This document shows, in pieces, positions 2,795 to 4,788 of a DNA stretch of 7,230 nucleotides. The first letter of the stretch is position 1; each line of letters starts with the position of its first letter. Source of the DNA: a virus. Taxonomy: Duplodnaviria; Heunggongvirae; Uroviricota; Caudoviricetes. A program made the translations under genes and the position numbers. The stretch is taken from positions 1 to 7,230 of the IMG/VR virus record IMGVR_UViG_2547132270_000006. One strand, written 5' to 3'. A model generated the notes under the pieces. It worked only from the letters and a program-made list of their open reading frames with translations. It searched no databases and was not told where the DNA came from.

Positions 2795-2830
2795 AACCCC
2801 CACCTCGCAGATGCGGGCGCTGTGTAATGG

Positions 2831-2855
2831 AAACAAAAAATGGCCACCAGCGGCC
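2831..2855 (-). terminator. Terminator-like hairpin plus U-tract about 40 nt upstream of the holin start
   Basis: Minus strand reads GGCCG-CUGG-UGGCC (5-bp stem with one G:U, 4-nt loop) followed by AUUUUUUGUUU (plus-strand aaacaaaaaat at 2831-2841). Confidence 0.4.
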
Positions 2856-2941
2856 CGTAAAAAACACCCCGTCAAAGGCACCCGCAGATGCCTTTTGTGT
2901 GGTGTTATCTGATTTAATGTGCGCCAGACATGGCACATATA

Positions 2942-2968
2942 TGAAAAAGACCCCGGTACATACCCGGG
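2942..2968 (-). terminator. Terminator-like GC hairpin plus U-tract between the opposite-strand cargo gene and the holin
   Basis: Minus strand reads CCCGG-GUAUGUA-CCGGG (5-bp all-GC stem, 7-nt loop) followed by G UCUUUUUCA. Would stop minus-strand transcripts leaving the cargo region. Confidence 0.4.
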
Positions 2969-2979
2969 CCAGATGAAGT

Positions 2980-2998
2980 GCCAGATTAAGAATCTGGC
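2980..2998. repeat. Perfect 8-bp inverted repeat with a 3-nt spacer (GCCAGATT-AAG-AATCTGGC)
   Basis: Read directly at 2980-2998; no U-tract on either strand, so more likely a protein-binding site or RNA stem than a terminator. Lies in the divergent intergenic region between the holin and the plus-strand cargo gene. Confidence 0.5.
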
Positions 2999-3063
2999 GG
3001 TATACCCTCGCGCTTGATATCGTTACATCGCCAAAAGTAACCACATCAAATCAGGAGAGTTAA

Positions 3064-3603
3064 ATGGGCATAGTGCTTTATTCTGCTGACAGAAGAGGCA
3101 GATACAATGCAAATACATTAATGAATTTTTCTTCTATAGTGCCGCCTGTAACTGATAGCTACATTGTTGATGGTCCTATTGGGGCGAAGTTTGATTTCAA
3201 AATCGCTGAACATGGTTTGCGATACCTGTTTCCGAGAAGAGACCTGACCAGCACTGATCTCATGGAGCTTATTGTTGAACTGGTTCGTCAGCTTCAGTTC
3301 CCAACAAAACCATCCAGATACCAGTCAATATTCGCCTGTGAAAAGATAGAGGATGCAAATTATTTTAGAGAAAATTATCGTGAACACGATGGGCCGCAAC
3401 CTATTTATGAAATACTGACAGGTGATAATACAAATATTCACCGTGGTGATATGAGACTTCTTGACATTGATTCATTAACAGATAACGCAGCAATAATCTT
3501 CACAAAAGCAATCTGGTACTGGTCAGGCATCGCTTCTAACGAATCGTTCTGGGAGTATGTTGTCCCGCTTCCCGCACAGATCGGCAGGATGGTAATGGAA
3601 TAA
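3064..3603 (+). CDS. Hypothetical protein (179 aa); AT-rich opposite-strand accessory (moron) gene, function unknown
   Basis: ATG at 3064 with AGGAGAG at 3053-3059; tandem TAA TAA stop. Visibly AT-rich relative to flanks (by eye). Opposite orientation to the whole late operon. No family recognised from the translation (MGIVLYSADRRGRYNANTLMNF...). Confidence 0.7.
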   Translation: MGIVLYSADRRGRYNANTLMNFSSIVPPVTDSYIVDGPIGAKFDFKIAEHGLRYLFPRRDLTSTDLMELIVELVRQLQFPTKPSRYQSIFACEKIEDANYFRENYREHDGPQPIYEILTGDNTNIHRGDMRLLDIDSLTDNAAIIFTKAIWYWSGIASNESFWEYVVPLPAQIGRMVME

Positions 3604-3615
3604 TAAACAATTAAC

Positions 3616-3654
3616 CTATCAGGCGGGGGAGCAAGATATATTCACGCCTGATAG
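3616..3654 (-). terminator. Perfect 10-bp inverted repeat (CTATCAGGCG / CGCCTGATAG, 19-nt loop) between convergent genes; possible terminator
   Basis: Arms at 3616-3625 and 3645-3654. On the minus strand it is followed by GUUAAUUGUUUAUUAUU; on the plus strand there is no U-tract. The proximal arm contains the TGA stop (3619-3621) of the 69-aa gene. Confidence 0.4.
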
Positions 3655-3828
3655 ATAACTCTCAAGATGTACATATGGATCAAGATGGACCTCGTCTTTA
3701 CTAAGCTGATCGATGACGATTCTCATCTTTTCAATCACTTCTTCTTTAGTTTCTCCAGAGGTAGAAAATGTAAATCGAATTCTAGCGGGTAAGACACATT
3801 GATGTGCTGTCATTTTAATCTCTTTCAT
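3619..3828 (-). CDS. Hypothetical small protein (69 aa)
   Basis: ATG at 3828 with a strong GGAGGA 6 nt upstream; translation MKEIKMTAHQCVLPARIRFTFSTSGETKEEVIEKMRIVIDQLSKDEVHLDPYVHLESYLSGVNISCSPA. The track's 97-aa ORF starts at upstream Mets with no ribosome-binding site. No family recognised. Confidence 0.55.
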   Translation of the reverse strand: MKEIKMTAHQCVLPARIRFTFSTSGETKEEVIEKMRIVIDQLSKDEVHLDPYVHLESYLSGVNISCSPA

Positions 3829-3915
3829 ATAAATCCTCCAGAAACAACACAACCCGCATGGAGGCGGGTTTAAGCTGTGTGGCGTAGTAACCACTCTTAA
3901 CATCATATTCAACTT

Positions 3916-3929
3916 TTTACGATCGTAAA
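3916..3929. promoter_or_regulatory. Perfect 14-bp palindrome TTTACGATCGTAAA (central GATC) overlapping a candidate sigma70-like promoter for the 69-aa gene
   Basis: Palindrome read directly. On the minus strand TTTACG (3929-3924), a 16-nt spacer and TATGAT (3907-3902) form a promoter-like arrangement about 75 nt upstream of the 69-aa gene start codon. Operator-like geometry. Confidence 0.3.
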
Positions 3930-3946
3930 GCGTTCGGGAAAAATTT

Positions 3947-4510
3947 TTAAAGCCGCATCAGTCGTTCCACCAGTTGCTCTTTACGGGCAACGATCCAGCC
4001 GTGTTGTTCCAGATAAAATTTGAACCGTTCCAGAGTGCATACCATCGCATCGGCGGGTACTTTTTCCGTGAAGTCGACCTGACCATGGTTATCGAAGTGG
4101 ATCAGTAATGCGCATCCATCATTTTCGGTGGGGGAGTTTTGTGTTGCTGGTGGCTGTTTCTGGCTGAAATAACAGTCTTCGAGTTTTTCGAACACTTCCC
4201 ACGCCAGATCGGTTTCGAGCATTTTGGCATGGCGGGCAGCGCCACGTTCTGTCCAGAGGATAAGGGAGCGGGCTTTGGGAGAGATGGGATTTTGTGAGTA
4301 GTTTAAAGCTACCCGCAATTCTTTAAGGTCATTACCAACAACTTTGAAAAAGTGTTTCCCTTCAACGAAGCGTACTTTGTTCTCATGATGATTCTGGCGA
4401 ATACGCACCGGCTCAGTGCCGTAAAGCTGCGCCAAAAGTTCGGTGGTAATAACAGGAATCTGGTTATGGGTGATCGGGGAGAGAGTTTCAACAGAAATTT
4501 GAGTTGTCAT
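3947..4510 (-). CDS. ORF6N/KilA-N-like domain protein (antirepressor/Roi-like DNA-binding family), 187 aa
   Basis: ATG at 4510 with AGAGGG upstream. N-terminal half (PVITTELLAQLYGTEPVRIRQNHHENKVRFVEGKHFFKV ... SLILWTERGAARHAKMLETDLAWEVFEKLEDCYF) matches the ORF6N pattern as I recall it; C-terminal about 80 aa unassigned. First gene downstream of tR'. Confidence 0.7.
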   Translation of the reverse strand: MTTQISVETLSPITHNQIPVITTELLAQLYGTEPVRIRQNHHENKVRFVEGKHFFKVVGNDLKELRVALNYSQNPISPKARSLILWTERGAARHAKMLETDLAWEVFEKLEDCYFSQKQPPATQNSPTENDGCALLIHFDNHGQVDFTEKVPADAMVCTLERFKFYLEQHGWIVARKEQLVERLMRL

Positions 4511-4591
4511 AATGACGCCCTCTGGTGGTTTCTAAACTATCACCACCGTCAGGTTCCAATCATCGGGTGGTGAGACGCACAGGGTTGGAAC
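4511..4591 (-). promoter_or_regulatory. Structured 5' leader with interleaved complementary segments upstream of the ORF6N gene
   Basis: On the minus-strand RNA: GUUCCAA (4591-4585) pairs UUGGAAC (4559-4553); UCACCACC (4573-4566) pairs GGUGGUGA (4547-4540) perfectly over 8 bp; GGUGGU can alternatively pair ACCACC (4529-4524), which abuts the ribosome-binding site AGAGGG. Pairings are mutually exclusive or pseudoknotted. Confidence 0.3.
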
Positions 4592-4667
4592 TACCGGGAA
4601 ACCGACCGGCGAGCTTTTCAGCTCCCCCATGCGCCCCACCATAATTCAGATGTGCGCGTGCATACGA

Positions 4668-4693
4668 CAATAAAAAACACGCTCGCGGCGTGT
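4668..4693 (-). terminator. Candidate tR' intrinsic terminator of the late leader transcript
   Basis: Minus strand reads ACACGC-CGCGA-GCGUGU (6-bp stem, 5-nt loop) followed by UUUUUUAUU, roughly 60-80 nt downstream of the candidate pR' -10. Confidence 0.6.
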
Positions 4694-4754
4694 ATCTGTC
4701 GCGGTCTCTATCCGGGGTTCCAATCCCGACGCCAGATTTTGCTGGCGCGTGAGG

Positions 4755-4784
4755 AATATAGCCCCGGATAATGTGTCTGGTCAA
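4755..4784 (-). promoter_or_regulatory. Candidate late promoter pR' immediately downstream of Q
   Basis: Minus strand TTGACC (4784-4779), an 18-nt spacer, TATATT (4760-4755), starting 5 nt after the Q stop codon. A promoter-proximal hairpin CGCCAG-CAAAAU-CUGGCG (4747-4730) follows, whose loop CAAAAU is -10-like and could be a pause-inducing element. Position matches the lambdoid Q-pR'-qut-tR' layout. Confidence 0.5.
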
Positions 4785-4788
4785 GCGC

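Follow-up and report, generated by a model that had tools for sequence, protein, structure and literature searches.

In Gifsy-1, the small RNA (sRNA) IsrK, the short reading frame orf45 (AUGs at A107 and 119–121) and the antirepressor-like AnrP form one unit, in which the short IsrK switches on, in trans, the translation of a read-through RNA, and AnrP increases the expression of Q, which lies upstream of it, and triggers induction; such action is known for Gifsy-1 only (PMC4825925). In VT2-Sakai, transcription from the late promoter pR′ extends over 258 nt as far as a second terminator, and the product is StxS (PMC7547250). These systems were compared here with a 7,230-nt stretch (the window; contig AEJY01000065.1) of an Escherichia albertii lambdoid prophage, which covers its late-control and lysis region in minus-strand reading, and in particular with the 1,994 bp between the stop codon of the antiterminator gene Q (4789) and the start of an S21-type holin gene (2794). 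Morons at this Q–lysis hotspot are a textbook kind of element. The Q-to-holin spacer of the window proved to be a mosaic of separate units, not a single insert, and one of these units is a 918-bp mobile cassette with an uncharacterised gene for a protein of ADP-ribosyltransferase (ART) fold.

The original prediction had drawn attention to an unusually long, gene-containing Q–holin spacer of about 2 kb, and this description held. Three open reading frames (ORFs) of substance were found in it, an ORF6N gene, a 69-aa gene (p69) and an opposite-strand DUF2441 gene, together with an additional leader ORF of 36 codons (Table 1). No tRNA was found in the interval, which has no structural or lysis function of the kind that would mark it as conserved phage backbone. 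The site had also been recognised correctly as a lambdoid cargo hotspot: VT2-Sakai, whose Q and pR′ are homologous to those of the window, has tRNAs and stx2AB at this place, Gifsy-1 has a tRNA-Arg and the opposite-strand effector gene gogA, and in E. coli relatives the cargo is a methylase, tRNAs and TerB, or a helix–turn–helix regulator; L001 and L002 are among the loci with other cargo.

The same prediction placed pR′/tR′ at the Q-proximal edge of the interval, at the Q stop codon, and took the three genes beyond it for one cargo block of ~2 kb in which ORF6N and p69 would both be Q-dependent late genes. A good sigma-70 match (10/12, 4784–4755) and a strong terminator (4693–4677) do lie directly after Q, and the same elements directly follow Q in Gifsy-1 and in E. 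coli relatives, but they are parts of an isrK/C4 module and travel with it far from Q. In addition, the homologue of an annotated late promoter and Q-utilization site (qut) lies at 3929–3887, and ORF6N and the cassette differ in distribution and junctions; a single block was accordingly judged very unlikely. As the promoter and terminator after Q recur with the module away from Q, they are therefore the module's own (PisrK and the IsrK terminator) and give no evidence for pR′/tR′, for which the homologous segment is 3929–3851. Only ~1.05 kb (3850–2795) lies downstream of T1, the first terminator after the probable pR′, and only 918 bp of the interval (2953–3870) behaves as a mobile insert, ORF6N belonging to a separate module. 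An account of the whole spacer as four units (module, pR′/T1, cassette and pre-holin terminators) is probable. We regard the following as established: the spacer is a mosaic; the isrK/C4/ORF6N module is what its name says; 3929–3851 is homologous to a late promoter unit annotated in another phage; the cassette is mobile and its genes are coding; and the DUF2441 protein has the ART fold. A promoter and terminator that directly follow Q need not be pR′/tR′ and can instead belong to an immI-like sRNA module, which changes the set of genes predicted to depend on Q.

By its sequence, the segment 4788–3947 is a self-contained, antisense-RNA-controlled antirepressor module of the P1 immI/Gifsy-1 isrK type, and hence of an already known kind. 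It shares with isrK–orf45–anrP of Gifsy-1 (Hershko-Shalev et al. 2016, PMC4825925) and with c4–icd–ant of P1/P7 immI the order promoter, IsrK/a1b1, terminator, C4, leader ORF with two AUGs and antirepressor-like gene (here ORF6N), and with Gifsy-1 also the position directly after Q. The isrK model started 7 nt past the −10 element of PisrK, and the TTGAC and CTATAT promoter elements were kept in module copies remote from a Q gene (VT2-Sakai nin region and APSE-7). The RNA region showed 88 % column identity to the Gifsy-1 locus, with the isrK of the window aligned to that of Gifsy-1; the ORF6N protein was 55 % identical to STM2616/AnrP of Gifsy-1 (E 6e-64), and a 32-aa gene was called at the place of the leader ORF in the related locus L004.

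The C4 motifs GGUUUC (a′) and GUUCCAA (b′) were complementary to sites in the ORF6N leader (a2 GAAACC and b2 UUGGAAC), and GUUCCAA also to UUGGAAC in isrK; for GGUUUC, isrK yielded no a1 complement, so that a′/a2 was the only pair found for this motif. The C4 duplex energy was −43.8 kcal/mol, compared with −31.9 ± 5.0 kcal/mol in shuffles. The b1/b′/b2 sites covaried, being GGAAC/GTTCC/GGAAC in the window, GGCGT/ACGCC/GGCGT in VT2-Sakai and Gifsy-1 and GAGAC/GTCTC/GAGAC in APSE-7, and the a′/a2 pair covaried likewise across the window, VT2-Sakai, APSE-7 and Gifsy-1. By analogy with P1 c4–icd–ant and Gifsy-1 isrK–orf45–anrP, translation of the antirepressor would be gated by RNA–RNA pairing. 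The window differs from Gifsy-1 in its a′/b′ specificity, in a leader ORF of 36 rather than 45 codons, in an adjacent Q of the 933W/QuuD type rather than an 82-like one, and in having no isrJ match downstream; isrJ, isrI and STnc100, which lie before the cassette or after anrP in Salmonella loci, had no window match at E ≤ 1. Elsewhere the module was located between ninE and roi in the nin region of VT2-Sakai, upstream of Q, in the early (nin) region of the Salmonella loci L008 and L010, and between KilA-N and BRO-N genes in APSE-7, with the promoter kept in each of these copies; it is mobile in its own right. A 74-aa ORF (4560–4784) was rejected as a gene, as it overlies isrK and C4 and its PHROG matches were weak (E ~1e-4). 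The ORF6N protein also weakly matched the candidate family PDC-S05 in PADLOC-DB 2.0.

The late promoter pR′ most likely lies at 3929–3902 and its first terminator, T1, at 3870–3851, forming a presumptive Q-specific unit with qut whose function was assigned by homology. The segment 3929–3887 was 88 % identical to the features annotated as ‘putative late promoter’ and ‘putative Q-utilization’ in the Stx2 phage VT2-Sakai, and T1 aligned with the first terminator annotated after pR′ in that phage. The window Q was 81 % identical to that of VT2-Sakai and 80 % identical to QuuD of DLP12, and distantly related to the Q21 structures 6p18/6jnx (E 2.5e-7). The likeness to the pR′–qut–tR′ unit of 933W/VT2-Sakai and DLP12 extended over promoter, initial transcribed region and first terminator hairpin (85–88 %) and, for 933W/VT2-Sakai, to the presence of cargo directly downstream. 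In VT2-Sakai, however, pR′ overlaps the 3′ end of Q, whereas in the window the two are ~860 bp apart, separated by the isrK module; homology to VT2-Sakai ended at the first terminator, and therefore no StxS equivalent was evident.

A pR′ segment accompanied every PF06530 Q examined (E. coli L001 and L002, the viral contigs L035 and L036, and DLP12 of K-12), and in L035/L036 it was preceded by a different gene instead of the isrK/ORF6N module. A parallel was seen in another Q family: in L014, Q is directly followed by a promoter-like segment and T1, and in L039 the isrK/C4/ORF6N module lies between the same type of Q and that segment. In DLP12, the homologue of pR′ and the first terminator (L050 6196–6274) lies past the opposite-strand nmpC, ~125 nt before the holin gene essD. 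The DLP12 cargo nmpC would therefore, unlike that of the window, lie between Q and pR′ and not downstream of tR′, and the pR′ segment therefore goes with the Q allele and with the beginning of late transcription rather than with the Q stop codon.

The space between Q and pR′ seems to be a second site of insertion. A small ORF with a signal-peptide-like N-terminus (L035 1994–2495, minus strand) fills it in two viral contigs whose Q is 85 % identical. The position just after anrP in Gifsy-1, equivalent to the pR′ site, is occupied by isrJ, and isrJ directly follows the Q gene in L040. In Salmonella-type loci, the Rfam families isrI, isrJ or STnc100 were found between Q/ORF6N and the p69/DUF2441 cassette (L041 3373–3469, L042/L046/L047, L040 2353–2427, L013 916–1118 and L051 32813–33480), which suggests that some ‘island sRNAs’ are short pR′-terminated transcripts.

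Because the ORF6N gene is located upstream of the probable pR′, it would not be a Q-dependent late gene. The earlier assignment of both minus-strand genes to the late class can thus be kept for p69, which follows T1 and is the only gene provisionally placed there, but not for ORF6N.

The cassette is a mobile moron directly after T1 at the Q–lysis hotspot. Alignment with related loci, proposed earlier as a means of defining the insertion, did give sharp junctions, at 2953 and 3870, but these were not the ends of the interval. Both coincide with hairpins, T1 (3870–3851) and T2 (2968–2952). At T1, homology was handed over from cassette-free E. coli relatives (L001 from 3863, L002 from 3851) to cassette-bearing loci, and at 2953 homology to L014 begins and that to L002/L003 ends. 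The G+C content of the cassette was 0.40–0.42, compared with 0.50–0.55 in the flanks. The genes p69 and DUF2441 were found together in 21 of the 21 loci tabulated, convergent and always oriented alike with respect to the late operon, and downstream of the Q gene wherever the contig was long enough, whereas the ORF6N gene was present in only ~9 of the 21; co-occurrence, which the original prediction had suggested testing for all three genes, was thus found for the pair alone. The Q genes ahead of the cassette belonged to four Pfam families (PF06530, PF03589, DUF1133/PF06576 and PF06323) in ~10 distinct contexts, and the holins after it to three or more types. Both cassette genes were under purifying selection (dN/dS 0.10–0.41, or 0.10–0.36 where dS > 0.25; for p69 alone 0.12–0.41 and 0.12–0.36, respectively), with dS reaching ~1.5 for p69 and ~1.15 for DUF2441 and divergences that broadly matched.

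The cassette was absent from 5,426 complete E. coli genomes searched at megablast and blastn sensitivity, in which the ORF6N/isrK part and the pre-holin leader were found, and the genome_contigs scan (one genome per species) gave no relative. The 918-bp unit moves among prophages of E. albertii, other Escherichia and Salmonella, and the site that it enters is always the one occupied by the Shiga toxin genes in close relatives. It resembles the lambdoid late-region morons (stx2AB, gogA/gtgA, nmpC, bor and lom) in being compact, in having a G+C content below that of its flanks and in being replaced by other cargo in close relatives, and its main gene, like gogA and nmpC, is opposite to late transcription. 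It differs from them in being a convergent two-gene unit with one gene per strand, in the uncharacterised ART-fold product and in that no clear promoter or terminator of its own was identified for the plus-strand gene. As ART-fold enzymes recur as toxins, defence effectors and anti-defence factors, this newly defined, well-delimited moron cassette is an inexpensive target for experiment.

The DUF2441 protein scored 29 bits against PF10386 (cut-off 25), a family found in 77 of 77 aligned homologues, and also matched phrog_5663 and, by sequence, PDB 2aua (BC2332), a chromosomal Bacillus protein of unknown function with ~20 % identity to it. DUF2441 belongs to the ART clan of Pfam (PMC7955679) and SCOP places BC2332-like proteins in the ADP-ribosylation superfamily (PMC3000352). 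The window protein, a cytoplasmic one, adopts the ART fold and in structure weakly resembles diphtheria toxin, LT, SopF and OspC3. Among the 77 homologues G51, R85 and E164 were invariant, and H50 and Y54 were present in at least 90 %, a pattern that would be compatible with an H-x-E type site.

Such a protein could be a virulence factor, i.e. an ADP-ribosylating toxin or secreted effector that acts on eukaryotic cells and is carried as conversion cargo like stx or gogA. The DUF2441 gene occupies the position of stx2 in VT2-Sakai and of gogA in Gifsy-1, its hosts are E. albertii and Salmonella, and the ART fold, with its weak structural similarities to toxins and effectors, is joined by a ProFunc match of BC2332 to diphtheria-toxin active-site templates (PMC3024214). 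However, the protein has no signal peptide and no B subunit gene accompanies it; its N-terminus is a conserved structured strand, common to Bacillus and Gordonia phage homologues and unlike a secretion signal, and homologues are present also in Gram-positive bacteria, in actinophages and in islands of Pseudomonas, settings to which a type III secretion host context does not apply. We consider a role in virulence unlikely.

The distribution of the family pointed in another direction. A tblastn search of 50,697 phage records gave only six distant matches for DUF2441. Distant members (28–46 % identity to the query) were single accessory genes on mobile elements: in lambdoid prophages they are oriented against the late genes and sit between the genes for lysis and those for terminase, in Mu-like prophages between dam and the holin gene, in Gordonia phages between tail genes and the integrase gene, and in genomic islands they adjoin integrases. 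They had no common neighbour, which favours a lone-acting protein in bacterial or phage-conflict biology over an obligate toxin–antitoxin pair or a type III effector. A counter-defence enzyme used during infection, as is the ART anti-CRISPR AcrIF11, was considered the least probable of the functions weighed. Genes for counter-defence are normally early genes that run in the direction of lytic transcription, and the DUF2441 gene, both in the window and in most lambdoid loci, runs against all lytic transcription units.

The opposite orientation is, together with the low G+C content and a conserved 50-nt upstream block, in keeping with the earlier proposal that the plus-strand gene is expressed in the lysogen. 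The block (3014–3063) was nearly invariant over five cassette variants, and the sequence farther upstream differed. No convincing plus-strand terminator was found for the gene. An imperfect inverted repeat within the block (TTGATAT ... ACATCAA) might be an operator.

Sequences related to p69 formed four clusters among 5.8 billion sequences and one cluster in a HMMER scan of 1.84 billion representatives, all of them linked to the cassette, and tblastn against the 50,697 phage records gave no p69 match. The promoter scan found no promoter for p69 inside the cassette, and T1 lay directly ahead of p69 in every context examined, with the hairpin kept in L014 and L008; its expression should therefore come only from terminator-resistant late transcription. 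A p69-like partner common to the DUF2441 family was rejected, as the small neighbours of distant members are unrelated to p69. Little credence can be given to DUF2441 and p69 as a toxin–antitoxin or addiction pair with a stabilising effect on the prophage. The two genes converge, only 15 bp separating their stop codons, and are not co-transcribed as in type II pairs; p69, without a cassette promoter and behind terminators, should be silent in the lysogen, when an antitoxin is needed, and the distant DUF2441 genes are single and without a common partner.

In the mechanism that we propose, a constitutive PisrK would make IsrK and stop at its own terminator, and read-through RNA would carry C4, the leader ORF and ORF6N; the C4 a′ and b′ loops would pair with the ORF6N leader sites, and b′ would pair also with b1 of IsrK. 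In the lysogen, the ART-fold gene would be transcribed from the conserved upstream block, with p69 silent behind terminators. Upon induction, Q-modified polymerase from pR′ would pass T1 and make p69, and strong late transcription would then run antisense across the ART gene and pass T2–T4 to reach the lysis genes. Expression of the two cassette genes would thus fall in opposite prophage states, with p69 as the first late gene, and p69 may counteract or replace the ART-fold enzyme, sparing the prophage's own lytic growth.

We rank first, as a tentative reading, that the ART-fold enzyme is a lysogen-expressed lysogenic-conversion, anti-phage or host-modifying factor that is opposed at induction by antisense late transcription and by p69. 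A bolder and rather doubtful proposal is that the cassette is a new two-part prophage system, in which an ADP-ribosyltransferase made in the lysogen would modify a target in the phage or the host, serving superinfection exclusion, abortive infection or the reprogramming of the host, and would be shut off by an orphan late protein and convergent late transcription. If true, the p69/DUF2441 system would amount to a form of self-immunity located at the stx-equivalent site.

Several observations weigh against this account of the spacer and its cassette. On the side of the enzyme, only H50–G51 and E164 can be proposed as catalytic, with no middle residue of an H-Y-E or R-S-E triad assigned; no ART activity or other experimental study of any DUF2441 member was found in the literature, and the promoter scan gave no consensus sigma-70 promoter for the gene. 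Neither p69 nor DUF2441 had a match in PADLOC-DB 2.0 or in NCBIfam, the former result being the one that counts here. A profile search of the 1.84 billion representatives returned only p69's own cluster and no homologue of known function, and the AlphaFold2 model of p69 was unreliable (pLDDT 59) and too poor to serve as a search query. All p69–DUF2441 pairs derive from one cassette with a 15-bp spacer, and their linkage could be hitch-hiking; the small convergent neighbours of distant DUF2441 genes (53 and 72 aa) were not p69 homologues. As regards late transcription, the proposed pR′ agrees modestly with the consensus (9/12), and relatives differ in its −10 element (TATGAT, TATCCT and TATGCT).

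The region ahead of the holin gene (2795–2975) was more structured than shuffles (z = −2.65). Within it, the ~80 nt at 2828–2908 that contain the T3 and T4 hairpins were 89–93 % identical to sequences upstream of unrelated holin families in L001, L008 and L010, and may be a shared linker or insulator ahead of lysis cassettes; T2–T4 would insulate the lysis genes from transcription that is not Q-modified. Over the interval as a whole, the several hairpins reported earlier were confirmed: five were terminator-like, a modest excess over expectation (2.4 ± 1.5 in shuffles of 2500–5000), but four of them were kept in related loci. About 4,100 of the 5,426 E. coli genomes matched some part of a 2795–3950 query, the matches listed beyond the first 14 being to the first 159 nt of the query.

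Table 1. Features of the Q-to-holin interval and its borders, and loci aligned with the cassette (window positions)
Feature	Position	Strand	Basis
Antiterminator Q, QuuD/933W type, 128 aa	4789..5175	-	PF06530 E 4.8e-52
Module promoter PisrK, TTGACC-18-TATATT	4755..4784	-	Promoter scan, sigma-70 match 10/12
c4-a1b1	4709..4761	-	Rfam RF03163, 50.1 bits (gathering score 46.7)
IsrK sRNA	4672..4748	-	Rfam RF01394, 77.3 bits (gathering score 50)
IsrK terminator	4677..4693	-	Terminator scan
C4-type antisense RNA (a′ GGUUUC, b′ GUUCCAA)	4563..4646	-	Rfam RF01695, 71 bits (gathering score 45)
36-codon leader ORF, AUGs at +107 and +119 of the isrK transcript; positional homologue of Gifsy-1 orf45	4532..4642	-	Sequence reading
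ORF6N antirepressor-like gene, 187 aa, AnrP homologue	3947..4510	-	PF10543 E 2.4e-20; phrog_2379 ‘anti-repressor’ E 3.5e-93
Probable late promoter pR′, TTTACG-16-TATGAT	3902..3929	-	Promoter scan and VT2-Sakai homology
T1, first terminator after pR′ (AACCCGC-loop-GCGGGTT and U-rich tail), also mosaic junction	3851..3870	-	Terminator scan
Mobile two-gene cassette, 918 bp	2953..3870	.	Alignment with loci fetched by the DUF2441 protein
p69, first ORF after T1, GGAGG Shine–Dalgarno	3619..3828	-	phrog_11414 E 1.6e-26
10-bp-stem hairpin over the p69 stop codon and 15-bp intergenic spacer	3616..3654	.	Core of 7–9 bp kept in L008, L013 and L024
DUF2441/BC2332-like ART-fold gene, 179 aa, opposite to late operon	3064..3603	+	
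Conserved upstream block of DUF2441 gene (TTGATA...GGAG), candidate promoter/leader	3014..3063	+	
T2 terminator-like hairpin, holin-proximal cassette junction	2952..2968	-	Terminator scan
T3 terminator hairpin	2863..2906	-	In tandem with T4, pre-holin leader
T4 terminator hairpin	2842..2855	-	In tandem with T3, pre-holin leader
S21-type (P21-type) holin, first lysis gene	2579..2794	-	PF04971 E 7e-35
L014–L019, E. albertii-type, other Q (DUF1133/PF06576), lambda-S-type holin	2953–3870		98 % identity
L008–L012, Salmonella, PF03589 Q	3014–3868		88.6 % identity
L024, PF06323 Q	3015–3838		81 % identity
L013, Salmonella	2995–3776		78 % identity

The gene order of the window is Rem, a 92-aa gene, DUF968, RusA, Q, the interval, the S21-type holin, DUF1327, a signal–arrest–release (SAR)-type lysozyme, Rz/Rz1 and a 198-aa antirepressor-like gene. 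Related prophages have hok/sok loci (Rfam sok, 102–117 bits) in their early regions (L004 14801–14950, L014 10140–10287 and L010 5879–6054), and the window stops at Rem, short of that position. The 198-aa gene after Rz/Rz1 (121–717, minus strand) had weak antirepressor (Ant-like) PHROG matches and no Pfam match, and is the second antirepressor-like gene of the late region. A 90-aa opposite-strand gene (1992–2264, plus strand), which lies between the DUF1327 gene and the endolysin gene and overlaps the 3′ end of the former, was a full-length match to phrog_2411 (function unknown, E 2e-59) and looks like another moron, inside the lysis cassette.

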